From: an uncultured bacterium
GTDB taxonomy: Bacteria; Vulcanimicrobiota; Vulcanimicrobiia; Vulcanimicrobiales; Vulcanimicrobiaceae
Length of the DNA stretch: 52,648 bases
Direction of reading: 5' to 3'
Assembly (NCBI GenBank): GCA_964245595.1
Contig: CAXTNU010000001.1
Location: forward strand, 1 to 52,648
This document shows positions 19,161-45,881 of this stretch, piece by piece. Below the pieces are notes generated by a model, which saw only the letters and a program-made list of their open reading frames with translations, searched no databases and was not told where the DNA came from. A program made the position numbers and the translations under genes. Every line of letters starts with the position of its first letter. Within the stretch, counting starts at the first letter, position 1.

Positions 19161-19643
19161 TCACGCGCGGGCCGGTTCGGGCACGAACTGCTCGAGCGCC
19201 ACGCCCGCCTCGGCCAGCAGCGCTTGCGCGACCGGATCGGGGTAGGCGTCGGCGTAGACGATCCGGACCACGCCGGCGCTGATCAGCAGCTTGGAGCAGC
19301 CCGCGCAGGGCTGGTGGGTGCAGTAGGCCGTCGCCCCCGCGATCCCGACCCCGTGCAGGGCGCCCTGGACGATCGCGTTGGCCTCGGCGTGGGTGGCCCG
19401 CAGGCAGTGGCCGTCGACGATCAGGCAGCCGGCGTCGGTGCAGTGGGCGACCCCGCGGGGGGCGCCGTTGTAGCCGGTGGTGAGGATGCGCCGGTCCCGG
19501 GTGAGCACCGCCCCGACGCTGGCCCGCGGGCAGGTCGCCCGCGTGGCCACCGTCCGCGCGATGTCCATGAAGTACTCGTCCCAGCCGGGGCGCGTTACAC
19601 CGGAAACTCGATTCACCCCGGAAATTCGCTCGTCTTCTCGCAA
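19161..19643 (-). CDS. dCMP/cytidine deaminase (ComEB-like); first codons supplied by the island
   Basis: RPGWDEYFM, ATC.R..VGAV, GYNG, HAEANA, PC..C; TTG start aligns with the GTG of the displaced copy at 45759. Confidence 0.9.
   Translation of the reverse strand: MREDERISGVNRVSGVTRPGWDEYFMDIARTVATRATCPRASVGAVLTRDRRILTTGYNGAPRGVAHCTDAGCLIVDGHCLRATHAEANAIVQGALHGVGIAGATAYCTHQPCAGCSKLLISAGVVRIVYADAYPDPVAQALLAEAGVALEQFVPEPARA
19582..19593 (+). repeat. attL-like core
   Basis: CAGCCGGGGCGC, identical to 45701-45712. Confidence 0.85.
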
Positions 19644-19653
19644 TCCGCCCCGT

Positions 19654-20478
19654 TTATTCGCCGTCTCCCCTTCTGCGGCCCGGCGACTTGTAGGAGGGCA
19701 CGCCGTCGCGCAGGTAGCGGCCCAGGAAGGCCCTCGTGTGATGCGTGCCGCCGGTGCGGACCTGGCGTGTCGCCGCCACGGTCGCTCCGACGGTGCCGTC
19801 GAAATCCGCGATGGCTGAGCACAGTGCCCTGAGTGCCTCGCGCCATGGCGTCTCGGCCAGGCGGTAGACGCGGAACGGTCCGACGGTGGTGGCCGTGAAG
19901 AGGCCGTCGCGCTCCATCGGCCGGAGCAGGGCGAGCATCTCATGCTGGGTCTTGACGCCGCAGCCGCGCGCGACGGAACTCTCGTCCACCTCCTCGAGCT
20001 GCGCCACGAGGATGACGGCAAGGGTCCGCAGCGGTGACCCGAGCCAAGTCAGCGGGCTGCCTTGGGCGCCGCGTTTCGGAAACTGACGCGGGGTCGTCGG
20101 TGCATCTACAAGGCACGAACCTTCGGGGATTGGCGCTGGTGGGCCGATGCGCACGGCGTTCGCGGCGCCGACCGCCGTCAGCACGCGTCGAACCGCGGGA
20201 GTGAGCGGGCCTTCTCGGGCCAGGCGGTAATCGAAGACGTTCCAACGCTCGGCCGTCGTCCAGCGCCCGATGAGGCCGGCGATGGCCATTTTCCGCAGGA
20301 GGCCTTCGGCCCCGGATGCCGACAGGGCGGCGAGCGCCGGGATGGCGTTTCGGCGCGCGGGCTCGGCCGAGCCGATCTCGACGAGGACCCGCGTCGCGAG
20401 GCTGTTGCCCAGGAACAAGGGCGGGTATCCTTCCTGCGCCTCGCTCCGCCGGCGGCGAGCCGGGTCCCACCTGTCCAC
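19654..20478 (-). CDS. Double winged-helix protein, paralog A
   Basis: Two repeats of the LG...RT.V..E...L..LE.DG...G..R.Y.L wHTH pattern; paralogous to 20518-21390. Confidence 0.6.
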   Translation of the reverse strand: MDRWDPARRRRSEAQEGYPPLFLGNSLATRVLVEIGSAEPARRNAIPALAALSASGAEGLLRKMAIAGLIGRWTTAERWNVFDYRLAREGPLTPAVRRVLTAVGAANAVRIGPPAPIPEGSCLVDAPTTPRQFPKRGAQGSPLTWLGSPLRTLAVILVAQLEEVDESSVARGCGVKTQHEMLALLRPMERDGLFTATTVGPFRVYRLAETPWREALRALCSAIADFDGTVGATVAATRQVRTGGTHHTRAFLGRYLRDGVPSYKSPGRRRGDGE

Positions 20479-20517
20479 GAGACGGCGGTACGCTGCCGCG
20501 ATCCAGGCTCCCCGTGG

Positions 20518-21390
20518 CTAACGCCGTCGCCGACGGCGGCGCGGCCGCATGGGCTCCAAACCGAGATGCGCGCGAAGGTGAACGCGGCCGGAGCACTGGC
20601 CGTGAACCAGGAGGATCCTGGCCGGCGCGATGACGCTCGCGAGGTCGGGTCGGACGCGGAGGACGGCCTGGCAGAGCGCGATGAGCGGCTCGGTCCAGGG
20701 TGCCTTGAAGAGCCGGTAGAGCCGGATGGAGCCGACCATCCCGCTGGTCAGCACCCCGTCCGCCTCGAGCGGGTCCAAGAGGCGGTGCATGTCGCCGTCC
20801 GTCCGCACCCCGGCGACCCGGGCGATGGTCGAGGCGTCCCCCGCGCCGAGCGAGGCGCAGACCAGGACCGCCGTCGTGCGGTTGGGGTGGCCGAAGATGG
20901 TCTCGACGTCGCCCGGTGGGCGGCCGAAGATGCGCAGCCTGGTGACGTTTGAGCCCTCGACCACGGCGAGATCTTCGGACGGTGAAGGGGAGGGTGTCCA
21001 GGTCAGGTTGTTCGTGTCCGCGATGCTGCGCAGCAGGTCGCGCACCGGCTCGGCGAGTGAGTGGCGTCGGTCGAGGGTCAGGAGGTAGCCGTCGTGGTGG
21101 GCGGGATTGCGGTAGCGCCGCACCAATCTGAGCGCAACGAGCCTGCGGACGGTGTGGCCGAGATTGGCGTCCGTGACGTTCGCGCGCTCGGGTAGGTCGT
21201 TGATGGCCACGGGCTCGCGTGCGGCGATTTCGACGAGCGTCTTTGTGACGGCCGCTGAGCCTAGGATCAGTGCCGGGTATCCCGGCCTATTTGCTTTGAT
21301 GTTGTCCTGTCGACGCCCGCGTGGACTTGGGATTCGGTCGTGAACCAACGAAGGAGCATAGCCTGGCTTTTCTTTTTCGTTGCGGCGCAT
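20518..21390 (-). CDS. Double winged-helix protein, paralog B (start uncertain)
   Basis: GYPALILGSAAVTKTLVEI vs GYPPLFLGNSLATRVLVEI in paralog A; IFGHPNRT...LDPLEADG...GSIRLYRL. Confidence 0.6.
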   Translation of the reverse strand: MRRNEKEKPGYAPSLVHDRIPSPRGRRQDNIKANRPGYPALILGSAAVTKTLVEIAAREPVAINDLPERANVTDANLGHTVRRLVALRLVRRYRNPAHHDGYLLTLDRRHSLAEPVRDLLRSIADTNNLTWTPSPSPSEDLAVVEGSNVTRLRIFGRPPGDVETIFGHPNRTTAVLVCASLGAGDASTIARVAGVRTDGDMHRLLDPLEADGVLTSGMVGSIRLYRLFKAPWTEPLIALCQAVLRVRPDLASVIAPARILLVHGQCSGRVHLRAHLGLEPMRPRRRRRRR

Positions 21391-21603
21391 GCACCGGCAC
21401 GCGGCGCCGCAACGAACGAAACTGTACGGTTCGGCTCTGACCCATCGGGAATCGGAGCGACACGGGAACGGGCGGAGGGATGCGCTCCGCAGGGTGTCTG
21501 TCCCTCGTCCACCGTTCGGCGCGCGTAGCGCCCACATGCTCAGTCCGCGCTAGGTACTGCGGGTCCTCACACACGGTACGATTGCCGCATGGCGACGCCG
21601 GCA

Positions 21604-22242
21604 CTAGAATTTCGTGCGCAGTAGGCCGAGCGAATCGGCCTCCAGGGCCGCGATACGGCGGCCGAGGTTTTCCCGCGCGGTCGTTTCCGAATGCACCACG
21701 TCGAGCGCGTGGGCAAGGCCGAAGTCCACTGCCGGCGCGGCGAGCACGCGCTCACGCATGATCGAGAAGCGTGACATCGCCGCCAAGCCCTCCAACAAGG
21801 TGTCGAAGTGGACGAACCGTCCCTGCAACTGCGCGCAGATGTCCGCAAGTGAGGCAGTTGCAGCGAGCGCGCGGATGCATCGTCCGTCGCCCGTAAAGAG
21901 CAGTGTGTCCGCGTTCGAGCAGGCGTAATCAATGAAGCGAGCTTCGCCGTCGTCGATGCCGGGAACCGCAGCGAGCCGCTTCAGACGCACCGCATCAACT
22001 GCGTCCGACGGCAGCGGTTCGCACATCGTGTACATGGTGTAGGCGTCCTTCCGGACGTCCGTTGTCGCGTAGAACTTTGCGTACAGCGGCAGCTTGTCGC
22101 TCAGGCGAAGCGAACCAAACGCGGCCGGCACGCAGAAGTACGGTCGCTTAGCTCCGTTCGACCGGAGCAACCGGTCTAGTTCGGCCACCAGTGAGAACGA
22201 CGCCGTCTTGATGATGACATCGTTGTCGAGAAGCGGCTGCAC
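21604..22242 (-). CDS. PIN-like protein
   Basis: LLDNDVIIK, IDDGEA, FTGDGR acidic motif set. Confidence 0.6.
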   Translation of the reverse strand: MQPLLDNDVIIKTASFSLVAELDRLLRSNGAKRPYFCVPAAFGSLRLSDKLPLYAKFYATTDVRKDAYTMYTMCEPLPSDAVDAVRLKRLAAVPGIDDGEARFIDYACSNADTLLFTGDGRCIRALAATASLADICAQLQGRFVHFDTLLEGLAAMSRFSIMRERVLAAPAVDFGLAHALDVVHSETTARENLGRRIAALEADSLGLLRTKF

Positions 22243-22251
22243 CAGTTGACG

Positions 22252-23289
22252 TCAGACCAACGGCTCGCGCAGCACGTCGTCGAGCATCTCAGCCGCGTCA
22301 GATGGCAAAGATCTCAAGTCGAGATGTTCGGCCGCCGCAGCGTTCACAGTCCGCATGGGGAGCGCAGGTTCGCTACGTCGCGTCTTTATCGCCCGATGCA
22401 TGAAGGCAAAGTCGTTAGTCTCGCGGCCGAACCGCAGCGCGAGATGTTCAGGGTCGATACGCAAGGGTGCCGCCTGCGACCAGAGGACGTTGGCCAGTTC
22501 GCGCGGGGTGCCTGCGAAGTTCTCCCAGAAGGCCGGCGCATCGAGACTTCCGAGGACGCCAAGTGCGTACCGGTTCGCGTCCGATTCGTCCTTTGCGTCT
22601 TGATCTTCATCGACCGCGTCGGAAAAGGATTCGTTCTCCTGAACATGCCCAAGTGCGATGTGGCCGAGTTCATGCGCGATAAGGAAGGCGTCCCACGCTG
22701 CCAACTGCTGCTCGTTGCGCGTGAGCAAGATGACGTCGCGGCCGTCAACACGATGGACCAACGCATCCATTCCGCGGGGAGTTGGGACCGCGGCGACATG
22801 AAGCACCGCGATATTGCGGTCCCAACAGTAGCGCAACAAGCCCTCCAACGACGTCCATGGTACGTCGCTGGAGGCCAGAATTTCCGCGCGTACACCGGCG
22901 GGGTCGGCGCTTACCGGGGCGGACCTCGGGATGGTGGCGGCGACTAAACGCGCGATGCCCGCGCAGTACGCCTGCGGCGCGTCCGGCGGCGCCTGGGCAG
23001 TCGAGGATCCCGAACGTTTGAACCGCATGCCAACAGGCCCGTCCGGGACGATGCGATCGTGCTCGAGGAACTCCGCCACGTCGAGTCCAAGGCGTCGCGC
23101 GAGAACGAGTTTAAGGTGCTGCTTCGCGCCCTCGTCCTCTCTCTCGACATCCGCGGTCCACCAGGTGGGGATGGCGTGGCCGAGGACGTCGGATTGGTAT
23201 CCCTCGCCACGGAGGCGCTTCGTGAGTTCGCGCACGGCCCGCCCTCGGCCGGCTAACGCATCGGCAGCCATCGAGTCTGGGACTTCCAC
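22252..23289 (-). CDS. ImmA/IrrE-family metallopeptidase
   Basis: FLIAHELGHI (HExxH), DESDANRYA. Confidence 0.8.
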   Translation of the reverse strand: MEVPDSMAADALAGRGRAVRELTKRLRGEGYQSDVLGHAIPTWWTADVEREDEGAKQHLKLVLARRLGLDVAEFLEHDRIVPDGPVGMRFKRSGSSTAQAPPDAPQAYCAGIARLVAATIPRSAPVSADPAGVRAEILASSDVPWTSLEGLLRYCWDRNIAVLHVAAVPTPRGMDALVHRVDGRDVILLTRNEQQLAAWDAFLIAHELGHIALGHVQENESFSDAVDEDQDAKDESDANRYALGVLGSLDAPAFWENFAGTPRELANVLWSQAAPLRIDPEHLALRFGRETNDFAFMHRAIKTRRSEPALPMRTVNAAAAEHLDLRSLPSDAAEMLDDVLREPLV

Positions 23290-23953: not shown

Positions 23954-24934
23954 CTACGCCGTCTTGCGTCGGCCCGCGCGGCGGGCTCGCTCGAACGGAT
24001 TGCGGATTGGGTAGACGGGCGGGCCGGGAAGGTTCACCGTTGGACAGCTGTAGCGGACGTCACAGGCGTTGCAGGTCTTGGTGTCTGGCGGTTCCAACGG
24101 CGTCGGCCAGTTGCCGTCCTGACGATGCTGCATAATCGCCCGGGCATCGGCATCGAATCGCGTAAGCGCTTCACGCACGCGTTCCTCGGTGATAGTTACA
24201 TCGAGAGTGGCGAATTGGGGCCGTCCCTTCGTCCTGTTCACCCCTTCAAGTTCATTAATGAAGTACACAACGGCGCGAGCAGGGAAGGCGTCCGTCCGTA
24301 GGCGGTACAGTTCCGCGTACACAAGCATTTGCCACTCGTAGTTCTTCCAGTCCGCTGTGCCGCGTCCGAGCCGTTTGGAACCCTTGTAGTCCCAGATCTC
24401 CATGGTCCCGGGATCGAGTGGTTGGTCGATGCGCTCAACGTCCTCAGCCCGCGCGATGACATCGACGACGCCGCGCAACACGTAGTCGCGCCGGTCGCTC
24501 TCAAGCCGGAACTCTGTGTCATGCACGCGCGGGTAGAGCGTCGGTCCTTCGATGGCGTTGAAGTTCTTAATGACCTCCTCTGCCTGGTCTGCGACATCGT
24601 CGTTTGCCGCACGCACGCCGTGTGATTGGAGCGCGTTGCGGACCTCGAGGAAATATGTGGCGATGTCCTCGTCCCTCGCAAGCGTCCCGAACGGTCTATC
24701 CGGGACGAGTCCCCGGTAGAGGCGGTGGCAACGGTCGAGGACCTGGTGGATGATAGTCCCGTAGAACGCCTGCGTAGAGCGCGCCGGCACGAAGCCATCG
24801 TTTCCAAAGAAGCGGTACTGTCGGGAGCATTTCCGGTACGACAGAATGTCGGATGTTAGGCTAAACCGTGGCCGGGCCACGGTCGGCGGCTGATACGGGA
24901 CGTGCAAGCCCTCGAAGTTTTCCCAAATCGCCAT
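23954..24934 (-). CDS. RecB/AddB-like PD-(D/E)XK nuclease with Fe-S cysteines
   Basis: CSRQY, GTIIH, LRGVVDV, IWDYK, QMLVYA, C..C.....C. Confidence 0.88.
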   Translation of the reverse strand: MAIWENFEGLHVPYQPPTVARPRFSLTSDILSYRKCSRQYRFFGNDGFVPARSTQAFYGTIIHQVLDRCHRLYRGLVPDRPFGTLARDEDIATYFLEVRNALQSHGVRAANDDVADQAEEVIKNFNAIEGPTLYPRVHDTEFRLESDRRDYVLRGVVDVIARAEDVERIDQPLDPGTMEIWDYKGSKRLGRGTADWKNYEWQMLVYAELYRLRTDAFPARAVVYFINELEGVNRTKGRPQFATLDVTITEERVREALTRFDADARAIMQHRQDGNWPTPLEPPDTKTCNACDVRYSCPTVNLPGPPVYPIRNPFERARRAGRRKTA

Positions 24935-24943
24935 ATCATATCC

Positions 24944-27172
24944 TCATAACGGCGGCGCGTGGTACCGCAGCCAGGTGCGGTCTGGTCCGCACGGGATGCT
25001 GTCGTTTCTGCGGAAGTGGGCATCGCTACCGACGAGGATGAGCGCCCACTGCGCGCGCGAGTACGCCACGTAGAACGCGCGCACGGTATCGACCTCCGCG
25101 CGCACGGAGGCGTCTGGGCGCGCGAATTGACGCGCGTCTTCGCGCGCGAACCGGGCGATGTCGTCCTCCAGCGCGTAGACAGCAGCCTTGGGATTAGCGG
25201 TCGTGCCCATGCTCCCAACGAAGACAAACGGGAACTGCAATCCCTTCGCCTGGTGGATGGTCATGATTGGGACGTAGCCGGGTGGGACGATGATGTCATC
25301 ATCCTCCTCGTCGTTCATCCCCTCAAGCGCCAAAAACCCGAAGAACAAGTTGTAGAAGCCACCGTTCCATTTCGGCACTACGCCGCGCTCGCCTGTAGGA
25401 GCGGCCATCATGCTGCCGCGCCGTACACGGTCGTCGCGCGCGACGGGAAGCGAAGCGAACGCCTCGATCAGAGCCGTGATTTTGGCAAGCCGCTCACGTC
25501 GGACCGGGTCCTCGTCGTTCCACGAGCGGAACGGTTGGAGCGCGAGGATCAGGTACAGCAACTCTTGCAGTTCGGTTGGTACGCGTTCGCCGGGGTGCTC
25601 ACCGATATTGCGCACCGCTTGCGCAACGTAGGTGCCCAGCTCGGGGTGGTCGCGCGCCACCCTCTCGTAGACGGCACGCGCACTATGGACGAGGTCCGCT
25701 ATCTCGCGTTCCCAGGGAGGGCTCGGGAGGTCCGGGTCGGTGATCGCCGTGATGGCGCCGAGCAGCGCGAGAACCTCCTCTTGCGCGAGGAACGATTTAT
25801 TGCGCGGATTGAAATATGGGATGCCGCGCGCGCGCAGCGCCGTCGCATAGGCGCCCGCTCCCTGCGCACCCTCTTTCGTGCTGCGCAGGATTAGACAGCA
25901 CTGACTATAGTCCTCGATGACACCGTTGTTTTTCAGGTCTGCAATGGTCTCGGCAAAAGCGTCCGCGAACGCTTCGTAGTTGCGTCCGCTCATCTTCCCG
26001 ACCGCAGGGTAGTCGTGCGCGCTGATCTTCGTGTTCATCGCCTCAAGGGGCGGTTTGCCGGGCACGCGTGACCCCGGTGCGGCCATCCCCGCGAACGCTG
26101 TCACGTACGCGTTGCAGAAGTCGACCACCTTACTGTGGGAACGAAAGTTCTCTACTAGCGGGTATTTCGCGACCTCGGCGCGTTCGACGCCCAGTTGCGC
26201 GACGCAAGCTTCATCGAACGTCACCATGCATTCAACAGAGGCGCCCCGGAAGCGGTACAGAGCCTGGTCGTCGTCGCCGACCACGACGATGTTCTTCGTG
26301 CCACGCGCGAGGTTCAGATAGATACGTTCCTGCAGCACGTTAGTGTCCTGGTATTCGTCGACAAGCACCCACCGGATCGGCGGGCGCTCCGTGGTACCTT
26401 CGCGCAGCTCACGTCCCGCCGGCGTGTCGAGGAACTCGAGAAAGCGCGCTTGCAGGTGGGCAAAGTCGCAGCGGTTCCGTGCTTTGAGCGTCTCCGTGTA
26501 CTGCTCATAGACATCGGCCAACATAGCCCAGGCGCCGCCCTCGGCCCGCATGAGGGCGAGCGAGGCGCGGTCTTCGGCCACCCGGTTGAACAGTTTCACG
26601 AGTTCGCGCGTTGCGACCCAGCGCCGTGGAGGCTTGTCGTACTCGGGCTTCCAGTCGAGCGGACGGAACAGGTACGCGAAGTGGCGCCAGAACTCCAGCC
26701 GTTCCGGCGCCGTGCTCCGCTTGACGAACTCCACGTGCTGGTGCACAAACATTGCCGTCTCGAACTCGTCCATGAGGCGGACGTTCTGATAGTTAGGCGC
26801 GCGGAATTCTTGCAGGAGGTCATTGCACAGGCCGTGCAGCGTGCCGATGCGAAGACGCGAAACGTCAACGCTGCGCGCCTCAGGATACGCGTTCACGACG
26901 GCCGTGTTGTAGAGGCCAATTCGGTCGTCGATGTTGCGAGCGGCCTTCTCGGTGAACGTCGTTACGACGATGCTCTCTGCGTCGACCCCATCGACGTAGA
27001 GCAGACGAAGCACAAGCAGAGCGAGCGTCTCGGTCTTCCCCGAGCCCGGTCCGGCGATAACCCAGGCCGGGCCAGAGGGGTGCGCGATGATATTGCGCTG
27101 TGCCCTGCTCGGACGCTCCTCGCCATCGCCGCGAGGTGGAAAGATGGCGCGCAGCAACTGCTCGAGGGTCAT
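24944..27172 (-). CDS. UvrD/Rep (SF1A) helicase
   Basis: AGPGSGKT, TFTEKAA, VDEYQDTN, GDDDQALYRFRGA, NFRS, TIHQAKGLQF, YVAYSRA; AGGAG RBS. Confidence 0.95.
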   Translation of the reverse strand: MTLEQLLRAIFPPRGDGEERPSRAQRNIIAHPSGPAWVIAGPGSGKTETLALLVLRLLYVDGVDAESIVVTTFTEKAARNIDDRIGLYNTAVVNAYPEARSVDVSRLRIGTLHGLCNDLLQEFRAPNYQNVRLMDEFETAMFVHQHVEFVKRSTAPERLEFWRHFAYLFRPLDWKPEYDKPPRRWVATRELVKLFNRVAEDRASLALMRAEGGAWAMLADVYEQYTETLKARNRCDFAHLQARFLEFLDTPAGRELREGTTERPPIRWVLVDEYQDTNVLQERIYLNLARGTKNIVVVGDDDQALYRFRGASVECMVTFDEACVAQLGVERAEVAKYPLVENFRSHSKVVDFCNAYVTAFAGMAAPGSRVPGKPPLEAMNTKISAHDYPAVGKMSGRNYEAFADAFAETIADLKNNGVIEDYSQCCLILRSTKEGAQGAGAYATALRARGIPYFNPRNKSFLAQEEVLALLGAITAITDPDLPSPPWEREIADLVHSARAVYERVARDHPELGTYVAQAVRNIGEHPGERVPTELQELLYLILALQPFRSWNDEDPVRRERLAKITALIEAFASLPVARDDRVRRGSMMAAPTGERGVVPKWNGGFYNLFFGFLALEGMNDEEDDDIIVPPGYVPIMTIHQAKGLQFPFVFVGSMGTTANPKAAVYALEDDIARFAREDARQFARPDASVRAEVDTVRAFYVAYSRAQWALILVGSDAHFRRNDSIPCGPDRTWLRYHAPPL

Positions 27173-27254
27173 GGTCTCCTGCCCGGGCCGTAGCAACAGA
27201 GAAGGCTTCTGCCGGAAGAGCCTCTCGGGCTGCCCTACTTGATCGGGTCCCCTC

Positions 27255-27350: not shown

Positions 27351-28244
27351 ATGCCCAGAGCGACGCCCGAAACAGTGCGCCGTCCTATCGTGGTGACGTG
27401 GTGCGTCGCTCGTAAGACGGTTCCGGCCAGTGCCCGATTCACGGAGGCCTCGGGGTCGACATCCGACCGCATCGCCGCTTGGCTCGGGACGCTACGGGAC
27501 GCACCACCCAAGGTCCCGGCGCGGGACCTGTACGCGGGCCGCGCGTTTTGTCTCGCGCGTGAGGCAGCAGACCGTTACGGAGCCGACCTCTCGGTCGTGT
27601 CGGCGGGACTAGGCTGGGTGACCGCCACGACGGTCGTGCCAGCCTACGACGTGACAGTGGGAACAGGGGGCCTTCAGGGCCACGACTTCGACCTGGCCGC
27701 ATGGTGGCGATCCGTGGTCACTGGCCCCTTCTCGACCACTCCGGGACGCGACCTGGCGGACCGACCTCTGGTCCTCGCCTGTGTCGCGAGCGCCTACGCG
27801 TCGTTCTTCTCGGATGCGCTTGGTTCAGTTCCGCGCGAGCGGCTACGGATCTTCGGCAGCGGACTCGCGCAACGCCTGGGAGGAGGGTTATCCTACGCGG
27901 TGATGCCGTACGACGACCGGCTCGACGTTCTCGTACCGGGGACGCGAGCGGACTTCGCGCAGCGCGCGCTTCGCCACTACCTTTTTGAGATCGGTCCGTC
28001 GACAGATACCGAGGGAGACAAGCGGCGAATCAAGGCTGCGCTCGCTGGTCTGGCGAAGGATCGGATCCGACCCGGACGGAGCCTGGGCGACGAAGAGATC
28101 CGCGCACGCATCTGCCAAACCGCGGCCGAGACTGGGTTGAGCCGGACGGCGATGCTGCGCCACTTCCGAGACGTGCTTGGGATCGCTTGCGAGCAGTCCC
28201 GGTTCGCGCGCCTGTACGGGGAGGCGTTGCCCGATGGGCACTGA
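27351..28244 (+). CDS. YaaA/DUF328-like protein, candidate DpdC
   Basis: C..RK, PARDLYAG, VVSAGLG.V, PAYD motifs; first gene of the dpdA operon. Confidence 0.6.
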   Translation: MPRATPETVRRPIVVTWCVARKTVPASARFTEASGSTSDRIAAWLGTLRDAPPKVPARDLYAGRAFCLAREAADRYGADLSVVSAGLGWVTATTVVPAYDVTVGTGGLQGHDFDLAAWWRSVVTGPFSTTPGRDLADRPLVLACVASAYASFFSDALGSVPRERLRIFGSGLAQRLGGGLSYAVMPYDDRLDVLVPGTRADFAQRALRHYLFEIGPSTDTEGDKRRIKAALAGLAKDRIRPGRSLGDEEIRARICQTAAETGLSRTAMLRHFRDVLGIACEQSRFARLYGEALPDGH

Positions 28245-29343
28245 CGCGCTCGTCGTGCGCGCCATTCACGCGCGGCAGGGCGACCACGACATCTACTCCT
28301 TCTTCATCCGTGGCCCGCAACTCTTGAAGATCGCGAAAATCTCGCGAATCGCGCCCGACGAGAAGGGCGGGCTCTCAGGCTTTCAACGTAAGCCCGTCCA
28401 AGATCAAGTGCGCGCCATCGCGGAATACGTTTCGCGCGGCGACGTGCTCTTCCCGAACGCCATCGTGCTCGCCCTCAGTTCGAATGTCAAGTACGTAGCA
28501 ACCCGAGGCCCCACCCCACGTGGAAGCAACGACACGGGGGAGGCGGGGACACTCACAATTCCCGCCGCCCAGGGCACTGCCGCGGCGTGGATCGTAGACG
28601 GCCAGCAGCGCGCACTCGCGCTCGCGGAGAGCCGCGCGGAACACCTCCTCGTCCCGGTGGTCGCATTTGTCTCCGAAGCGGTGGCGACGCAACGCGAGCA
28701 GTTCATTTTGGTCAACAAGGCGCGACCACTCTCGCGCCGGCTAATCGACGAACTGCTGCCCGAGGTAGACTTCCCGCTGCCTCGGGATCTTTCAGCACGC
28801 AAGACGCCGAGCTACCTTTGCGGCGTGCTCAACGACCACCCTGACTCTCCGTTCCATGGGCTGATACGCCGAGCGTCGACCGTCGGCGACGGCGCCGTCG
28901 TCACCGACTCAAGCCTTGTCCGCGCCATCCGGAATAGCATCGCACATCCGCGCGGCGCGCTTGCGGCGCACGTCACACCCGACGGCAAGACGGATATGGC
29001 TGCGGCCTTCCAGACATTAGTCACCTTCTGGGGAGCAGTCCGCGACGTTTTTCCGGATGCGTGGGGGTTGCCAGCCGACCGCAGCCGGCTCATGCACAGC
29101 GCCGGCATTGAGGCCATGGGAGTTCTGATGGACCAAATCATGGGCCGCCTTGCGTCGACAGACAACGCCTTGAAAGTTCGTACGTCGCTCGAACGAATCG
29201 CTCTCGAATGTCGTTGGACTCACGGTCGTTGGGCGACGATCGATCGCGAGTGGAACGACATTCAGAGCACCCCGCACGATGTCAGGCTACTCGCGAATCT
29301 ACTCGTCTCTCTGGATCGGGGCGCCCTGGTGGAGCAGCGTTGA
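28234..29343 (+). CDS. DGQHR-domain (DndB/DpdB-like) protein 1
   Basis: GFQR, FPNAIVL, IVDGQQR, QFILVN. Confidence 0.88.
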   Translation: MGTDALVVRAIHARQGDHDIYSFFIRGPQLLKIAKISRIAPDEKGGLSGFQRKPVQDQVRAIAEYVSRGDVLFPNAIVLALSSNVKYVATRGPTPRGSNDTGEAGTLTIPAAQGTAAAWIVDGQQRALALAESRAEHLLVPVVAFVSEAVATQREQFILVNKARPLSRRLIDELLPEVDFPLPRDLSARKTPSYLCGVLNDHPDSPFHGLIRRASTVGDGAVVTDSSLVRAIRNSIAHPRGALAAHVTPDGKTDMAAAFQTLVTFWGAVRDVFPDAWGLPADRSRLMHSAGIEAMGVLMDQIMGRLASTDNALKVRTSLERIALECRWTHGRWATIDREWNDIQSTPHDVRLLANLLVSLDRGALVEQR

Positions 29344-30611
29344 AGTTTCTGTACTCCGACAGCCTGGACTTCGTCGATCCAGAATACGATTTCGCGCGCG
29401 GTCAGCACGGGGCCGTGCGTCGCATGCACGAGGACGACGATTATCCCCACGAGCATTTCGCGAAGGCGCCATACGACGGCCTTCTGGTGTCCCGTGCCAT
29501 AGTCGGCGACGCCCACCGAAAGGGCAAGTACACGCCCGCGCAGGCCATGCGCTTTCATCGCGAAGGGGCCCGTGCGTTCCTGCGGTATCCGAAGGCCCGC
29601 TTCCGCGGAAGCATTATGATGGGCGACTGTGGCGCGTTTTCGTACAGCAATGATGCGGTTCCGCCCTACAGTGTCGAAGACACGCTCGAATTCTACGAAG
29701 ACGGCGGCTTCTCGCACGGGTGTTCCGTCGACCACGTCATCTTTGACTTCACTGACAATGCTCGTCCATCGCGACGCGCGAAGAAGCGCTTCGACATCAC
29801 GCTTGACAACGCGAGGCGCTTCATCAAGGCATCCGGCGTCTTGGGTAAGGGTTTCACGCCGGTAGGCGTCGTCCAGGGCTGGTCGCCGGAGAGCATGGCC
29901 GATGCAGCGGTGCAACTCGCCAAGATGGGATACCGATACCTCGCAGTTGGCGGCCTAGTTCCGCTGCGGACTTCGCAGATATGCTCCGCGCTCGCGGCGA
30001 TCCGCGACCCGCTACCCTCTTTTGTGAAGCTCCATTTGCTCGGGTTCGGAAAGGTGGAAGACCTCCAGGAAGTCGCCCGCTACGGAATCGCGAGCTTCGA
30101 CACGACCTCGCCGCTTCGTCGCGCGTTCAAAGACGCGGATAAGAACTACTTCGCCTTCCGCCCGGACGGCGGCATAGACTACTACACTGCGATCCGCATA
30201 CCGCAGGCAGTCAATAGTTCGCGGCTGCTTCGGCGTGTTCGCCTGGGCCAGCTGAACCAGGAGCGGCTCCTGACGCTGGAGGCCGACGCTCTCGCCGCCG
30301 TCCGCGCGTTCGCTGAGCGACGTATGAACAGCATGGACGCGGTAAGCGCCATCATGGCGTACGTCACGTACGCGCTCTGGGACGACCGGGTGACGGACGA
30401 GCGGAACTCGGCACGCTTCGCGCGATTCGCGACCGTGTACTGCCAGACACTAGAATCCCGCGTGTGGGAGTCGTGCGACTGCAGGGTCTGCGCTGAGATC
30501 GGCGTGGAGTGCCTCCTCTTCCGCTCCTCAAACCATAACAAACGCCGTGGTTTTCACAATCTACACGTCTTCTACAAGAGCGTCGGCGCACGCTTCGGCA
30601 GGAAAGTATGA
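29340..30611 (+). CDS. dpdA: TGT-like DNA 7-deazaguanine transglycosylase
   Basis: DCGAFSY, SVDH, GVVQGW, GGLVP, HLLG, SFDTTSP, Zn site C.C..C...HN; TTG overlaps upstream TGA. Confidence 0.85.
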   Translation: MKFLYSDSLDFVDPEYDFARGQHGAVRRMHEDDDYPHEHFAKAPYDGLLVSRAIVGDAHRKGKYTPAQAMRFHREGARAFLRYPKARFRGSIMMGDCGAFSYSNDAVPPYSVEDTLEFYEDGGFSHGCSVDHVIFDFTDNARPSRRAKKRFDITLDNARRFIKASGVLGKGFTPVGVVQGWSPESMADAAVQLAKMGYRYLAVGGLVPLRTSQICSALAAIRDPLPSFVKLHLLGFGKVEDLQEVARYGIASFDTTSPLRRAFKDADKNYFAFRPDGGIDYYTAIRIPQAVNSSRLLRRVRLGQLNQERLLTLEADALAAVRAFAERRMNSMDAVSAIMAYVTYALWDDRVTDERNSARFARFATVYCQTLESRVWESCDCRVCAEIGVECLLFRSSNHNKRRGFHNLHVFYKSVGARFGRKV

Positions 30612-31645
30612 CCGCCACCACTATAACTCTCGGGCCGACGATCTCGCCGCATCAGGGGACAGCCGCCCGGGTCCTGTGCTTCACCGCTACCGCGCGTCAA
30701 ATCGCTAGCATCGCCCGGATCGACCGCATCGGTCGTGATGGGAGCGGCGACCTGCGCGGCTTTCAGCGTCCCCAGATCGCTACGCACATCCGGGAAATAC
30801 GGGACTACCTTTCCACGTCAGAAGCGATACTTCCCAACGTCATCGTCCTCGCCTTCAATGAAGGCGTGAAGATTCGGAAGGACGGCATGTTGCTTGTCGA
30901 CGTCTCGACAGGACCGCCAGGATGGGTAGTCGATGGACAACAGCGGCTGACCGCCGCGCTGTCGATCGGCGAATCGCCGTTCGAACTGCTCGTATCGGCC
31001 TTCATCTGCAACGACATGGCGGAACTCAAGCGCCAGTTCATCCTTGTGAACAACACGCGACCGCTCGCAAAGCCCTTGATTTACGAACTCCTGCCCGGCA
31101 CGAGCGGCCTTCCGCACCGCCTATCCGACCGCACCGAAGCCGCCATCCTGACCGAAGCACTCAACTACCGCGAGGACTCGTCCCTCCACGGTTTGATCCA
31201 GCAGCAGACCAATCCCGACGGCGTCATCAAGGACACGATCCTGCAGAAGATGCTGATCAACTCGATGCTCCACGGAGCGCTGCGAGACGGGGCCGGAACG
31301 TCGGTCGCGTCCCGGTTTGCACTCGTGAGCGCGTTCTTCGCCGCGGTACGGCGCGTTTTTGAGCCCGATTGGGTGGGCCACAACGCCAAGACGTCTCGGC
31401 TACTCCATGGCGTGGGCGTGATCTCTATGGGCTACGTGATGGACGAACTCTACGTCCGCAAACGCGCACGCCGGCTCCGGGAGTTCGAACGTGGCTTGGA
31501 TCCGCTCGATGGGCGCACGCACTGGACGTCCGGGGAATGGAAGATTGGGGCCGAGCGGCGTCCGTGGCACTCGCTGCAGAACACGAACGCTGATTATCGG
31601 CTGCTTTCCCACCACCTCGTGCGCATGATACGGCGGGGACCGTGA
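30608..31645 (+). CDS. DGQHR-domain (DpdB-like) protein 2
   Basis: GFQRPQI, LPNVIVL, VVDGQQR, QFILVN. Confidence 0.88.
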   Translation: MTATTITLGPTISPHQGTAARVLCFTATARQIASIARIDRIGRDGSGDLRGFQRPQIATHIREIRDYLSTSEAILPNVIVLAFNEGVKIRKDGMLLVDVSTGPPGWVVDGQQRLTAALSIGESPFELLVSAFICNDMAELKRQFILVNNTRPLAKPLIYELLPGTSGLPHRLSDRTEAAILTEALNYREDSSLHGLIQQQTNPDGVIKDTILQKMLINSMLHGALRDGAGTSVASRFALVSAFFAAVRRVFEPDWVGHNAKTSRLLHGVGVISMGYVMDELYVRKRARRLREFERGLDPLDGRTHWTSGEWKIGAERRPWHSLQNTNADYRLLSHHLVRMIRRGP

Positions 31646-31727
31646 GGACGCAGGATGCCAGCCGTCTGGAACCACAAGCGGCGACGATGCCGGCGACGCC
31701 GTGTCTGGCCGGGAGGGATGAAGTACG

Positions 31728-32447: not shown

Positions 32448-32451
32448 GACG

Positions 32452-33651: not shown

Positions 33652-34430
33652 ATGCGTGTCCGTCTGTTCGCCGATGCGGACAACATGCTGTGGGACACCA
33701 ATGCGGTGTTCGGGGCCGCTCAATTGTCGCTCGCGCGCAACGTCGCCGATCTTTCGCCCCGGCCGGGGCTGCTCGACGTCGAGGACGAGGCGGCGCTTCG
33801 GCTCGTCCGTGTGCTTGATCAGCGATTGGCGGTCAATCATGAGTTGGGGTTGCGGTACCCCCGCTCCTGTTGGCGAAAGCCCTACATGTTTTGCTCGGAG
33901 GTGATGGCGACGAGGCGAAGCTCGTCGAGGCGGTCGAACTGCATCACGCCGCCCTCGCGGCGAAGCCGCCGTTGCGCGCGGGCGTACGTGAAGGGCTTGG
34001 GGCGCTAGCCACGGCTGTCGGTCAGCTCGTCCTTGTGACAGAGTCACGCCAGGCACGTTGCATCGACCTGCTCGACCATCATGCCTTGGCGGACCATGTC
34101 GAGCGCGTCGTGTACGGCGCCAAGTCACCGTCGTTGTACCGTGAACTCCGCGACGTCGGCTGTACCGACGTGATGGTCGGCGACCAATTGGACCGGGACA
34201 TCGCCTTCGCGCAGGCGGCGGGCTTCGTGGGCATCCACTTCAGCGGCGGATTTACGCCGTTTTGGACGTCTGACCTGGAGGTCCGATTTGACTTCTCGAT
34301 AGGTGATTTCCGAGACTTGGTACCCATCATGGCGCGCCTCGTTTCGGCCGGCTCATCTCAGGCACTCTCGGCATCGCGGCACGTAACTCAGGCGCAGATG
34401 CCGTCGGAACGCTCGAACAACGCGGATTGA
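33652..34430 (+). pseudogene. HAD-superfamily hydrolase with one -1 frameshift in the C5 run at 33858-33862
   Basis: DADNMLWD (motif I), VTE (II), K (III), MVGDQLDRDI (IV); about 259 aa when repaired. Confidence 0.8.
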
Positions 34431-37588: not shown

Positions 37589-37728
37589 CGCAACAAGCAG
37601 AGGTAGCAAGGTATCAGTACCGGATCAAGGGTAGGGTTTCCGACACGCTTGTTGGCGGCGTGGTTTGGGAGAAGCGCACGGAACCAATCTCGTACTCGGG
37701 TCAAGACTATCGCAAATCCGTAGCTGTC

Positions 37729-39613: not shown

Positions 39614-39892
39614 GTGAAGACCTATCCGCTCAACCCCAGCCCCATCGCCGTGATGAGGGCCCGCTACCGCCTCGACCAGGTCGACGCCGCCCGGCGCCTG
39701 GGGCTGTCCCTCGGCCAACTCAAAGTCCTCGAGATGCGGACCGGCGAGCTGCCGCCCGACATCCTTGAGGTCATCGACCTCCTCCTCGGACCGCCGACCT
39801 GCTATCGCCAGATTTCCATCTGGGAAGCCCTGGAAGAGCTCGGACGTCTAGACGCCCAGAACGATGGAGGGGAGGGTGGCGCGCGTGCGTAG
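39614..39892 (+). CDS. XRE-like HTH protein
   Basis: SPIAVMRARYRLDQVDAARRLGLSLGQLKVLE. Confidence 0.65.
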   Translation: MKTYPLNPSPIAVMRARYRLDQVDAARRLGLSLGQLKVLEMRTGELPPDILEVIDLLLGPPTCYRQISIWEALEELGRLDAQNDGGEGGARA

Positions 39893-40166
39893 CGCCCGTC
39901 TCGACGTGCTCGAGTCGCCGGTTGCAGTGTTGCGCCGGCGGCACGGACTCAGTCCCGACCAGGCCGCGTCCCGGCTCGGCATCTCGGTGCTGCGGCTGGC
40001 CCGGCTGGAGGCCGCCACCCGCCGGCTGCCGGTCGGCACGCTGGCCGCGATCGCCGAGCGCTTCGGTCCACCCGGCACGCCGCTGAGCGTCATGGACCAC
40101 GTCCGCGCGATCGTCGCGGCCGGCGAAGGCGCACCGACGGTCGGTGGAGGCCGTTCCGATGGCTGA
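39876..40166 (+). CDS. XRE-like HTH protein, paralog of the previous gene
   Basis: SPVAVLRRRHGLSPDQAASRLGISVLRLARLE. Confidence 0.65.
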   Translation: MARVRSARLDVLESPVAVLRRRHGLSPDQAASRLGISVLRLARLEAATRRLPVGTLAAIAERFGPPGTPLSVMDHVRAIVAAGEGAPTVGGGRSDG

Positions 40167-40584
40167 GCGCAGCGGACCCGGCCCGACCCTGCGCACCGTC
40201 TTGCAGACGCTCAACGCGCGCGGCTACCACGTCGGGCTCGACGACGACGGCCACAGCATGCTGGTGGTGGACGAGCGAGGCCGACGTTCGTGGCTGGGCT
40301 ACGGCCCGGTCATGCGGTTCTGCTCGCGCGGCGACGACGTCGACGACGCCGCCCTGGCGGTCGAATTGCACGCGCTCCTGGACGGCCTGCCCGACGAGTG
40401 GGCGCCGGCGGTGTGGTGCGAGGTCGGCGTGGAGGACTCGGATCTGGCGTGGCAGTTGGAGCGGTTCGGGGTGCGGCCCGGGGCGTACGTGCTGGCGGTC
40501 GCGGCCGGCCTGTGCGACCTGCCGTCCATCGCCGCGAAGTACGGTCTGCCCTCCCCTTCGCCGGAGGACCGTCGCGATGGATGA
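40159..40584 (+). CDS. Hypothetical protein
   Basis: GGAGG RBS; overlaps both neighbours. Confidence 0.55.
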   Translation: MAERSGPGPTLRTVLQTLNARGYHVGLDDDGHSMLVVDERGRRSWLGYGPVMRFCSRGDDVDDAALAVELHALLDGLPDEWAPAVWCEVGVEDSDLAWQLERFGVRPGAYVLAVAAGLCDLPSIAAKYGLPSPSPEDRRDG

Positions 40585-40978
40585 GGCGGTGCGGTTTTGG
40601 GGCGACCCGGTGCGCGCGTCGCTGATGGAGGGGCAGCCCGGGGTCGAGCCGTTCGAGCGGCTCTACGCCACGTTGGAGCGCCGAACCGCGGCCACGGACG
40701 GCCCGCTCTTTACTTCTGCCGACGTTCGTGCTGTGGTGGCCGAGCGCGGGCTGACGGTAGGCCAGTTCGCGCACGTCGTGAGCGTGCCGCCGGCCTACGC
40801 GAACGGCATCGTGAACGGGTGGTTGCGGTTGTCGCCCAGGGGGTTGGTGGAGGTGGCGTGGTGCCTGGAGGTGCCGGTCGGTGCGTTCTTCCACGACGGC
40901 CGTTTTCGGCAGCGCTGGCGCGTGCGGGAGTACCGCGCGTTCGAGCGGGCCCAGACGGTCGTCCGGCACCTCATCTAG
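40577..40978 (+). CDS. XRE-like HTH protein
   Basis: RGLTVGQFAHVVSVPPAYANGIVNG...LVEVAWCLEVPVGAFF. Confidence 0.6.
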   Translation: MDEAVRFWGDPVRASLMEGQPGVEPFERLYATLERRTAATDGPLFTSADVRAVVAERGLTVGQFAHVVSVPPAYANGIVNGWLRLSPRGLVEVAWCLEVPVGAFFHDGRFRQRWRVREYRAFERAQTVVRHLI

Positions 40979-41249
40979 GACGCGCACTTTCGCCGGTGAT
41001 CGGCGCGAGCTACAATGCGAAGATCAAGTTGCTGGCGATGGAGGTACGAACTCCATCGCCAGCACTGGCAGACCTGAACCACAGAGTTGAGCGCTGTGTA
41101 GAGGAAGTTAGCCGGTAGCCCGAGGTGGCATGCCGGCCGTGACCGCTTTTGGCTGCTTCGAGACGCCCCCTTGAAAGACGGGCCCCGAGGCGATCGGATT
41201 TTCGCATAAATTAGTGCTCTGCGAAAGGTCCGATGAACGAAAGACATCC

Positions 41250-41690
41250 GTGGGAAACCACAAGCCCGAAAACCGAGACATCGTCTGCCTGGACGAGCTG
41301 CGCGAGGTCTACCGCGTCCCGCTCGTCGTCGGCGAATACGGCCTGACCCACCACCGCCCTGGTGGCATAGAAGACATCCCGGACATCGCCGAGGTCCGCC
41401 GCTTGGGGGTCGAGCGCTGGGACGTGCACGGCACGAGCCTCGAGCGCGTGTACGACACGCCGCAGACCGTCCGCATCACCAAGAAGGGCCGTCTGCTCTG
41501 CGCGTGCCCGCGCTCCTGGTCCGTCGGGCTGGTCTGCGTGCACATGGCCGCGGTGAAGCGGCTCGACCTGCCGGAACGCGAACCGGTGCCCGAGTCGTTC
41601 ATCCCGTTTGACTTCGCGCCAGCGGACACGCGAGCCGCGGCGGAAATGCCGGCCACCGCCTCCTCGACCGGGGACAAGGCCCGTGGCTGA
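41250..41690 (+). CDS. SWIM zinc-finger protein
   Basis: CACPRSWSVGLVCVH = CxC-x(n)-CxH. Confidence 0.7.
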   Translation: MGNHKPENRDIVCLDELREVYRVPLVVGEYGLTHHRPGGIEDIPDIAEVRRLGVERWDVHGTSLERVYDTPQTVRITKKGRLLCACPRSWSVGLVCVHMAAVKRLDLPEREPVPESFIPFDFAPADTRAAAEMPATASSTGDKARG

Positions 41691-43457: not shown

Positions 43458-45608
43458 ATGAGTCGGAACTCGCGTAATCCCAAGAGGTCATCTAGCATGT
43501 CGACTGAGCGAGAGTTCTCAGTTGGGCCAATTAATGTTCGTCTGCGTGGCAAACAGGTTGAAACGACGGTCACCGCCTCACCGTCGGAATTTGCACAAAT
43601 GCGAGCGCACTTTGCTGAACAAAAGCGGCGAGCACCGGATGATTTTTGTCGAGAGATGGAAGACGTAATGAAGGCCATCGAAGACGTTGATTCGCTGACT
43701 GTTCTAGGCGCAATATTTTTTCGCTACCACTTAGCTCCCGCACTATTTGGCAAGGAGATGAAAGAGTCGTTTGCGCTGGTGGAACATATGGCGCTCCTTC
43801 TTGCGAAGCGAGACGGGAACGGCGAGAAGTTCGTTCTCGACAGGAGCGCGAGCGCAGTGGTCTTTTCGTACTTACAAGATCACCTCAACGCTGCGGCTTT
43901 CTTTGCGTTCCCCGATATGCCGGACGATCTTTCGGACGAACCGGACCCGATACTGGATGCAGTCGTGAATGTCCGAACCTGGGAGATGGGAGTTCGGGTC
44001 CCGCGCTATGACCATCATCAAAAAGCATTGCTGCGGTCGCTATTCGTCCCCTTTGCAGGCACCTTGCGCGAGACGCTGGGTTTCACATGCGAAGACGCAA
44101 TGGCAGTCGAGGAGGCCTTCGTTCGGTCCATCAAAGAGACCGCGCGTGAAGGGATGGATCAAGCGCGAACCGTCCTTCGTGACGTTGGGCGCGGGCTGAA
44201 AGGTGCCGCAGTGGGTGGCGATGCCCACGGAATCGTCAAGATGATGCTTGGGTCGAATGTGCAAGATCCCATGCCGTTGGTGCGGTCGATGCTCGGGGCG
44301 TGGCTAGGCTTTCGAACAGGGCATTCGCTCGGGATGACGGTGGAAGATGTATCGAATCGTACGGCTCTTCCTGCTGTTACTGTGCAGCGCGTATTAGACA
44401 CGATCACGACAACGTCGGAGGACCTTCGTGACTATTTCCACATCGTACCAGTTAACCCCCTCAAGTCGAAACCGCTCGTCGAGATCGACGGCGTTTACGT
44501 CATGCCGAGTCCCGGGCTCTTTTTGCCAGCCCTTCAAGTGTTGTTTGAGGATGCGCTGAAGAAGACTGCGGCGTGGCACACATATGATAACCATCGCAAA
44601 GACTTTTCCGAAGAGCGCGCCGGTACATTGCTCGGTCGCGTCTTGCCAAACGCTTTAGTTCTCCGCAATGTAAAATACCCCGGTGGCGAACTCGATGTCA
44701 TGGTTGCATTTGAGCGTCGGCTCTTTCTCGTCGAAGTGAAAGGTGGTGGGTTTGCAAAGCGCGCTCGCGTAGGAGTCGACAAACTATTGAAGGCGAACCT
44801 TCACGATCTCGTCCTAAGAGCCCATGAGCAAGCGCGGCGAGCTGCAGAGTATATCAAAAGTTCCGATACAGTGACATTTCGGAACGACTCTGGGAATTTT
44901 ACAATCCGTAGCGCTGACTACAATCGTGTCCATCTCATTGCGGTCACGTTGGAGCAGATCGGTCACCTTGTGAATGGACTCGGCTCGCTGGTCACGCGTG
45001 GTGGCGAAGACGTCCCTTGGACGGTGGCTATGGATGACTTGGAGACCGTAACAGACGTTCTGACGCGCCCAGCGCAGTTTGTACACTATTTGGAGGGCCG
45101 TGAGGCGATTCTTCGTGTGCCGGCTATCTCCGGACAAGACGAGCTAGGCTTTCTGGAGTGGTATCTGCGAACATCGCTGCGTGAAGTTCCCCAGCAGTTC
45201 GGTGATGCCCAAGTTGTCATGATGGATGCGGCTAGCCCGACGATTGACGCGTTCGGGAACGCCAAGGCCCGCGGCGAAGACCCGCCGGTGCCACCTCAGG
45301 CGCTCCCTGAGCTGGTGCTACGTCTGGTCGACGGCCTTGCTGCGGCACGCTGTGACGGCTGGCTGGACGCTGGCATTGCGTTGCTTGAGATGCCCCACGC
45401 GCTTCAACGGTCGCTGGCGCGCCAGATGCTAAAGATTGACCGAGGAGGCGGCAAGACCGAGATGCACGTCGTCGCGTACGACGGTAACAGTGACGTGACG
45501 GTTCGAATTGTCGGATCTCAATCCCGCACCTCTGACGTGCCAGGATGGCTCATCGAAGTTGATCGGGCATGGAACGTCGTCGGCTTGCGAAAGCCTCGGG
45601 CTCGCTGA
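43458..45608 (+). CDS. Large NERD/PD-(D/E)XK nuclease-domain protein
   Basis: E...ELDVMV...LFLVEVKG...QARRA.EYI; TGgTATACT extended -10 just upstream. Confidence 0.7.
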   Translation: MSRNSRNPKRSSSMSTEREFSVGPINVRLRGKQVETTVTASPSEFAQMRAHFAEQKRRAPDDFCREMEDVMKAIEDVDSLTVLGAIFFRYHLAPALFGKEMKESFALVEHMALLLAKRDGNGEKFVLDRSASAVVFSYLQDHLNAAAFFAFPDMPDDLSDEPDPILDAVVNVRTWEMGVRVPRYDHHQKALLRSLFVPFAGTLRETLGFTCEDAMAVEEAFVRSIKETAREGMDQARTVLRDVGRGLKGAAVGGDAHGIVKMMLGSNVQDPMPLVRSMLGAWLGFRTGHSLGMTVEDVSNRTALPAVTVQRVLDTITTTSEDLRDYFHIVPVNPLKSKPLVEIDGVYVMPSPGLFLPALQVLFEDALKKTAAWHTYDNHRKDFSEERAGTLLGRVLPNALVLRNVKYPGGELDVMVAFERRLFLVEVKGGGFAKRARVGVDKLLKANLHDLVLRAHEQARRAAEYIKSSDTVTFRNDSGNFTIRSADYNRVHLIAVTLEQIGHLVNGLGSLVTRGGEDVPWTVAMDDLETVTDVLTRPAQFVHYLEGREAILRVPAISGQDELGFLEWYLRTSLREVPQQFGDAQVVMMDAASPTIDAFGNAKARGEDPPVPPQALPELVLRLVDGLAAARCDGWLDAGIALLEMPHALQRSLARQMLKIDRGGGKTEMHVVAYDGNSDVTVRIVGSQSRTSDVPGWLIEVDRAWNVVGLRKPRAR

Positions 45609-45649
45609 GCGGTTGCGTCGGTCAGCACGCGGGGGAGCGACCCTTTACC

Positions 45650-45682
45650 CTGAATATTCGGGAATCGACCCCGAAAATTCAG
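45650..45682. repeat. 13-bp inverted repeat (12/13 match) next to the right island boundary
   Basis: CTGAATATTCGGG / CCCGAAAATTCAG. Confidence 0.6.
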
Positions 45683-45700
45683 ATTAAACGAGCTAACGCA

Positions 45701-45759
45701 CAGCCGGGGCGCTCCGCCGCGGGCCGGCCCGATGGGGAAATTCGCTCGTCCTCGTGCAC
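45701..45759 (-). pseudogene. attR-like core plus displaced original 5' end of the dCMP deaminase gene
   Basis: GTG-start peptide MHEDERISPSGRPAAERPG aligns with MREDERISGVNRVSGVTRPG at 19643; frame stops a few codons past the core. Confidence 0.8.
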
Positions 45760-45881
45760 CGAGGGCTGATTATTCGCTAGGACGATCCCGGCCGCCCGTG
45801 TCCAGCCGTCTGGCTCGCGGGCCGAACCGGCGGCGAAGGTGGGAATTGTTTACGCTGCGTAAGGGACCGGCCACTTACTTC

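Follow-up and report, generated by a model that had tools for sequence, protein, structure and literature searches.

Background

Integration that is exact to the base and keeps the target gene intact is usually attributed to tyrosine or serine integrases, and targeted transposition by DDE enzymes to the multi-protein machinery of Tn7. In the SXT/R391 elements the target gene prfC is kept whole by a 5′ end that the element carries. Here we describe a 52,648-nucleotide stretch of DNA (the window; GenBank assembly GCA_964245595.1, contig CAXTNU010000001.1, positions 1 to 52,648) from an uncultured soil bacterium of the family Vulcanimicrobiaceae, in the Eremiobacterota/Vulcanimicrobiota, in which a 26-kb block of phage-defence genes occupies the 5′ end of dcd, the gene encoding dCMP deaminase. 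The island is probably a cargo transposon that is specific for its target and encodes the enzyme that moves it, a SWIM-DDE transposase of Tn5/IS4 fold, with binding sites at the left end that double as a replacement promoter and N-terminus for dcd. G000 denotes the window's own genome and other G-numbers the related genomes with which it was compared.

In two published accounts, SXT/R391 elements and dusA-associated islands insert in the 5′ end of a conserved gene, have imperfect end repeats and form tandem arrays at one site (PMC5812530, PMC4482086). The second account gives a tyrosine recombinase as the one universal gene of the dusA islands (PMC4482086). The window island shares with these elements the fixed 5′-end site and the element-borne replacement, but among its open reading frames (ORFs) scanned there is no tyrosine recombinase, and no Pfam or NCBIfam match to conjugation genes (type IV secretion, relaxase).

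Tn7-like elements duplicate 5 bp of their target. A preprint describes them as carrying a DDE transposase and a large, defence-rich cargo, and as inserting in one orientation at fixed targets, competence genes included, with repeated binding sites at their ends; one archaeal example brings along a complete substitute for the gene that it interrupts (bioRxiv 10.1101/2025.07.27.667033). The present island differs in that no TnsC or TniQ/TnsD match was obtained among the island ORFs scanned, a lone TnsA-like domain being present in G023 only. The duplication is 9 bp at comEC and comM, with 8–12 bp of identity at dcd, as opposed to 5 bp. The replacement consists of a promoter and N-terminus within the element end, and the transposase fold is nearer to that of Tn5 than to TnsB.

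Tn5 duplicates 9 bp. The IS4/Tn5 group and the small insertion sequences (IS) that combine SWIM and DDE_Tnp_1 domains resemble the present system in fold, in a D-D-E triad with an arginine four residues before the glutamate, in the 9-bp duplication and in subterminal repeats about 18–20 bp apart. The present transposases are, however, larger (510–590 aa) and form a separate clade. They go with 6–34 kb of cargo, accessory winged-helix genes and fixed target codons, and at dcd and comEC the terminal inverted repeats are poor. TnGBS and ICEA are conjugative, Mutator-like elements. A published account presents these as large elements moved by a DDE transposase and not by an integrase (PMC5812530). 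The present island, unlike them, has no transfer genes and inserts inside coding sequence with repair. Competence genes appear as a known aim of mobile elements in one report (PMC12378983) and DDE-bearing islands as a broad class in another (PMC10484663). A literature search at the level of titles and abstracts, with supplements and most subscription papers outside its scope, found no description of dcd as an integration target or of this SWIM-DDE element family.

The island and the duplicated 5′ end of dcd

The island proper extends over 26,110 bp (19591–45700) and has a GC fraction of 0.638, compared with 0.698 genome-wide. To its right the GC fraction is also low, 0.61 at 45.7–47.5 kb. The original prediction held that three short blocks recur in order at both ends, and they do. 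They are not a single attachment repeat, however. Block 1 holds a 9-bp target duplication, whilst blocks 2 and 3 coincide with a motif repeated at the left end of the element. In the 4.3-Mb assembly the 15-mer block occurs twice, both times within the window; the 12-mer occurs eight times and the 8-mer 14 times, so that neither is distinctive by itself. A DNA profile of the dcd 5′ region, built from 18 relatives with the window excluded, has only two significant matches in the genome, at 19582–19679 and 45701–45784 (E 3e-10 and 1.4e-7; next best E 1). Since the profile finds just these two places, and given the 15-mer counts, a chance match and a dispersed repeat are both ruled out.

The left copy reads in frame into dCMP deaminase, upstream of wecA, wecB and the atp genes; the frame of the right copy continues into the end of the island, where it meets a stop after 26 codons. 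The encoded peptides and the one-codon offset between the copies are as first described, with small corrections to the start codons, a TTG at 19643 on the left and a GTG at 45759 on the right. The sequence bears out the proposal that the island lies within the 5′ end of dcd and carries an in-frame replacement N-terminus.

Comparison with G001 indicates which copy is native. This is the closest relative without an island directly upstream of dcd, and its dcd is intact. Over 79 bases of the G001 5′ end the right copy is identical at 66 and the left copy at 48, and in the first 19 codons the right copy shares 50 of 57 coding bases. The body of dcd in the window is 100% identical to that of G001 over the first 67 nt past a conserved Trp codon and 97% identical overall. 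Because G001 matches both the right type and the dcd body, the comparison identifies the right copy as the displaced previous 5′ end of dcd, in agreement with the original prediction, and the left copy as having arrived with the island. The 67 identical nucleotides past the junction place the exchange point within a few codons, and no donor tract was found in the dcd body when compared with G001. Of 23 sequencing runs, four, from two studies, were compared with the window. Contigs from three of them span the left junction into the island at about 93–94% identity; in the fourth run a contig matches dcd exactly and the match ends at 19593.

On the minus strand a promoter-like site lies at about 19654–19684, and its motif is conserved in the genus. 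As read from the sequence, the left end supplies dcd with this promoter-like motif, a TTG start and 20 in-frame codons. The motif was also considered as a mark of a competence regulon and this was rejected, as a matrix based on 13 of 38 sites gave 15 genome matches, none recognisably a competence gene.

The right copy may have a similar history. In other genera of the family (26 loci surveyed, three unpublished ones left out) 23 of the 26 dcd genes start no more than six codons from the conserved Trp, with negative scores for the end motif, whilst a long extension is present in two. Because so many start near the Trp, the ‘native’ right copy is itself probably an older element end. Within the genus the types of dcd 5′ end are discordant with a dcd/glyA tree, a two-gene tree from which nine genomes were left out and in which many deep nodes are weakly supported. 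The sisters G000, G001 and G055 have three different dcd starts. The simplest reading is that the N-terminal extension is an old element end, renewed repeatedly.

Recurrence of the dcd junction

Within the genus 39 genomes have a dcd match, and the region upstream of dcd was read in 38 of them, the one left out being unpublished. None of the conclusions depends on a genome marked as unpublished. A displaced 5′ copy with the same end base, followed by the same island-end sequence, is present in G000, in G014 and, as two in tandem, in G055, giving four junctions in three of the 38 genomes. That dcd is a dedicated integration target, as originally put forward, is upheld by the identical junction in G055 (twice) and G014, the further cases that came from surveying dcd genes of the genus for duplicated 5′ ends. 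In the G055 tandem the outermost copy is the most like G001, as expected if each insertion pushes the previous start outward. A strict pattern for the right end was found in one genome contig (the G055 locus) and in one of 201 class genomes (the window's own) and in no metagenome or viral contig; it missed two true ends that were found with mismatches, so these blanks mean little.

The same layout at comEC and comM

G007 carries homologues of the island's winged-helix and DDE genes 31 kb apart, orientated as in the window, with a 34-kb island between them that splits comEC and is bordered by an exact 9-bp repeat. Counted from the repeat, the left-end motif stands at +10 and +28, the offsets that it also has in the window (19600 and 19618). 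A weight matrix constructed from six dcd left ends ranks the comEC left end first of approximately 120,000 positions, at the predicted base, and the same score is reached by three other positions of 8.6 million in the window's own genome. G060, which belongs to a different genus, has a winged-helix homologue ahead of the 3′ half of comEC, at the same codon; the 5′ half ends at a contig edge.

An island in G014 splits comM; it is bordered by a repeat of 9 bp, and its terminal inverted repeats match perfectly over 19 bp. Its left end has a tandem winged-helix ORF, identified by a weak match. G000 itself has an intact comEC and an intact comM. The 9-mers duplicated at the three targets (dcd, comEC and comM) share no sequence relationship while keeping a constant length of 9, and this variation with target at a fixed length argues for a staggered cut. 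Among six small SWIM-DDE elements the duplication is 9/9 bases in three and 7/9 in one, with no clear pair in two.

Some of the small SWIM-DDE elements stand directly upstream of argC/argF, namely in G018 (C2, 562868–566008), G006 (C2, from 15580) and G055 (C14, near 90000) (L078, L079 and L170). The AT-rich site beside them resembles an ArgR box, and a second case of targeting is possible. In two genera SWIM-DDE genes end just past the stop codon of ssb (G060 C118, 5041–5307, L167; G014 C146, 14424–14729, L168), and similar AT-rich repeats begin right after that stop. In none of five genomes checked does rpsR follow ssb, and the opposite ends of these ssb elements were not located. In G000 an end of a small SWIM-DDE element is present as a remnant (C210, near 2425).

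The transposase and the winged-helix proteins

A mechanism of the SXT/dusA type, as first suggested, is not borne out. Searches with Pfam, NCBIfam and whole-genome family models found neither a tyrosine recombinase (PF00589) nor a serine recombinase (PF00239) inside the islands of G000, G007, G014, G018, G023 and G055, all tyrosine recombinase matches being off the islands. For G007 the island domain scan took in 32 of 77 candidate ORFs, and the remaining ORFs fall within the genome searches.

A single mobility gene lies on the island, the ORF at 41683–43332, which has a weak DDE_Tnp_1 match and whose nearest Atlas clusters combine SWIM and DDE_Tnp_1. Across 52 aligned sequences D282 and D361 are invariant, and R422 and E426 are at least 90% conserved. 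The structure model has a pLDDT of 87.6 (an earlier model from five sequences, with a pLDDT of 45, was unusable). Its fold matches are transposases and integrases, the best being Tn5 transposase (Z 15.1, rmsd 4.5, 266 aligned) against Z 9.1–9.3 for TnsB; the top Foldseek match is ISCth4. The predicted model thus displays the RNase H-like fold and intact D-D-E of the IS4-like DDE superfamily. A sequence search for a solved relative gave none, and every match to the named families IS4, IS5, IS1182 and ISNCY falls far under the curated cut-off. The close clade comprises about 20 proteins. In 348 family genomes a full copy is present only in G000 and G007, with a fragment in G055 that corresponds to the C-terminal part (67–90% identity), and scans of metagenomes, viruses, plasmids and phages returned no loci. 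In G000, G055, G007 and G014 the DDE gene lies 1.0–3.1 kb from the right end and is directed at it. A module of small helix-turn-helix (HTH) genes homologous to that upstream of the window transposase precedes the DDE gene of the G014 comM island.

Winged-helix protein B has 19 homologues at 51–71%. The winged-helix gene occurs in seven of 44 genus genomes, six times in the interval between upp and dcd and once at the G007 comEC. Five of the seven are directly upstream of dcd and one is at the far end of the G014 island; four carry stops. No locus was found in metagenome or viral scans, and for the homologue in G224 no target gene was seen downstream. A predicted complex of the transposase with protein B scores 0.44, against 0.00 for the best control, with runs agreeing on at least 88% of contacts and a partner pLDDT of at least 84. 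In the benchmark 18 of 157 solved complexes gained a mark at or below 0.60, as did the two mismatches that passed, and we regard the modelled complex as weakly supported.

Proposed mechanism and alternatives

The case for a DDE transposon is assembled from the fixed junction in three species, the 9-bp repeats in register, the conserved ends, the intact catalytic triad and fold, and the lack of a donor tract in the gene body and of an integrase on the island. We infer that the SWIM-DDE transposase made the dcd insertion. It would bind the repeated end motifs, which are putative binding sites, and the tandem winged-helix protein may help to choose or bind the target. This would be cut with a 9-base stagger at a fixed site not more than 13 codons into the conserved part of dcd, 9 bp would be duplicated, and insertion would occur in one orientation. 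At comEC and comM the insertion would break a competence gene. At dcd the left end would present, on the opposite strand, a promoter-like site together with a TTG start and 20 in-frame codons, leaving the gene whole; since these are provided, dcd and possibly the genes behind it may stay expressed. The extension of 20 codons, variable but by now fixed throughout the genus, would be the product of repeated insertion and decay. No phage genes were found on the island and, as conjugation genes were likewise not found, entry between cells by uptake as DNA or by carriage on another element is presumed.

More tentatively, these elements may represent a new family, in which fixed codons of dcd, comEC and comM, and possibly the ssb stop, are targeted by a Tn5-fold SWIM-DDE transposase and a tandem winged-helix partner alone, without TnsC, TniQ or a guide RNA. 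In the branch found at dcd, the left-end binding sites would serve as promoter and N-terminus, and repeated insertion would have permanently rewritten the start of dcd across the genus.

Several observations weigh against a DDE transposon of this kind. Neither transposition nor an excised form nor a transcript was observed, the material from related strains being assembled contigs. The terminal inverted repeats at dcd and comEC are poor (first bases 6/7, 4/7 and 3/7), and the inner end motifs are mostly in direct orientation, which also fits the arm sites of an integrase. With a matrix of the right end, built from three sequences, that of comEC comes no higher than 64th of 119,930. The comM halves are on two contigs and the transposase there is only distantly related. 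The 9-bp length at dcd rests on the register deduced from the sequence, since the identity repeats measure 12 bp in G000, 8 bp in G055 and 11 bp in G014. In G007 a displaced copy of the dcd 5′ end, 1.9 kb upstream and lacking the conserved right end, is unexplained by the model. Only two of the six dcd islands with a winged-helix gene show the DDE gene, the rest being decayed or cut by contig ends. Finally, TM-scores to solved transposases are low, at 0.2–0.3.

Three alternatives were weighed. The first also invokes a DDE transposon, but the left-end motif would be a captured host dcd promoter and 5′ end, with the transposase alone choosing the target and the winged-helix proteins without a role. 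The left copy does most resemble the current 5′ ends of G049, G051 and G052, none of which shows an island, and the elements before argC/argF in G018, G006 and G055 recur at one kind of site with no winged-helix gene. Such capture is nonetheless unlikely. The comEC left ends carry the motif where it has no coding role, 23 of the 26 dcd genes of other genera have no extension, and winged-helix genes stand beside the left end of the dcd and comEC islands and, with a weak match, of the comM island.

The second is an integrative element of the SXT/dusA kind, whose tyrosine or serine recombinase has been lost or acts in trans and whose circle recombined at a short core. The SWIM-DDE gene would then be a passenger and the motifs arm sites. 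The direct orientation of those motifs would suit such an element, as would the tandem accretion in G055, a right end with a 13-7-13 inverted repeat, the weak symmetry that G000 shows about a 7-bp core, and the replacement 5′ ends, which the dusA account presents as typical (PMC4482086). Neither recombinase family is matched inside the islands of six genomes, however, the duplicated 9-mers at the three targets are unrelated whilst their length is constant, and the comM island has true terminal inverted repeats. We consider this explanation improbable, and it keeps the standing that it has because of the weak terminal symmetry, the direct motifs, the DDE gene in two of six dcd islands and the absence of demonstrated movement.

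The third, that there is no dedicated element and the upp–dcd interval is a recombination hotspot which received congeneric DNA by transformation, with a homology anchor in dcd and microhomology joining, is very improbable: the interval does vary from 0.3 to 30 kb among the 31 genomes with both genes on one stretch and holds mostly ordinary genes, the G007 displaced copy has no conserved end, and comEC and comM are intact in G000, but four junctions at one base lead into homologous non-host DNA, the dcd body has no donor tract, and the same end motif is found at an unrelated gene. Whilst disfavoured for this island, transformation may explain part of the diversity of the interval.

Cargo and neighbouring genes

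The features are listed in Table 1. The cargo of related islands includes genes of the restriction-modification, Vsr, HEPN, Abi_C and toxin-antitoxin types.

Table 1. Coordinates of the island, its ends and its genes in the window.
Feature	Position	Strand	Remarks
dcd, dCMP deaminase, ComEB-like, 160 codons	19161..19643	-	PF00383, E 2e-23; first 20 codons island-derived
Target duplication, left 9-bp copy (first 9 bases of block 1)	19582..19590		register set by right junction and comEC island
Element left end	19591..19690		motif copies at 19600, 19618 and 19650; minus strand carries promoter-like site, TTG and replacement N-terminus
Tandem winged-helix protein A	19654..20478	-	stop codon inside block 3; paralogue of B, 31-33% identity
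Tandem winged-helix protein B	20518..21390	-	weak MarR match; candidate end-binding or target-selecting partner
Cargo: ORF without family assignment and IrrE/M78-type metallopeptidase	21604..23289	-	
Cargo: PD-(D/E)XK nuclease and UvrD helicase	23954..27196	-	
dpdC-dpdB-dpdA-dpdB, queC and frameshifted queD (7-deazaguanine DNA-modification cassette)	27351..32826	+	DpdA and both DpdB above PADLOC/NCBIfam cut-off
Pycsar-type membrane effector split over two frames and HAD-like hydrolase	32766..34430	+	
Small HTH genes and SWIM-type zinc-finger ORF	39614..41690	+	upstream of transposase; SWIM label by motif inspection and Atlas neighbours
SWIM-DDE transposase, 549 aa	41683..43332	+	D282 (42526), D361 (42763), R422 and E426 (42958) intact; points to right end
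Cargo: 716-aa ORF without family match	43458..45608	+	
Element right end	45650..45700		conserved at both G055 junctions and in G014; a 13-7-13 inverted repeat occupies 45650-45682
Target duplication, right 9-bp copy	45701..45709		sequence
Displaced previous dcd 5′ end with promoter-like motif, GTG at 45759	45701..45800	-	

The modification cassette has two dpdB paralogues (27351–31645), and no dpdD–K genes were seen on the island. Both queD (32444–32826) and the Pycsar-type effector (32766–33651) are frame-split, through decay or assembly error. A further 2 kb or so of low GC, 37700–39600, holds no convincing gene.

Outside the island, in the host part, a low-GC group at 6124–7706 (HTH gene, IrrE/M78 peptidase and an ORF without assignment) has a layout like that at 21604–23289. 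Between glyA and upp a HEPN-like gene and small partner (50071–50768) are probably a toxin-antitoxin pair. Just beyond the right end, divergent from the displaced dcd promoter, lies a low-GC gene for a secreted-type protein without a family match (45732–47417). The upp–dcd interval of G015 (L037, 11136–19353) is filled with at least seven tandem paralogues of a secreted protein, and a similar cluster adjoins the G007 comEC island. The displaced dcd 5′ copy of G007 (L044) flanks a single glycosyltransferase-like gene.

Significance

The arrangement at dcd would be an undescribed way for a transposon to enter an important gene without breaking it. If the proposal is correct, a one- or two-protein system of Tn5 fold that places 6–34 kb at fixed sites would constitute a third route, and would be of interest as a compact tool for targeted insertion. 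Methods of island detection that are keyed to integrases would miss defence islands of this type. For the organisms themselves, the proposal would, if true, provide a case in which the ends of a transposon have been turned into the promoter and N-terminus of a host gene.

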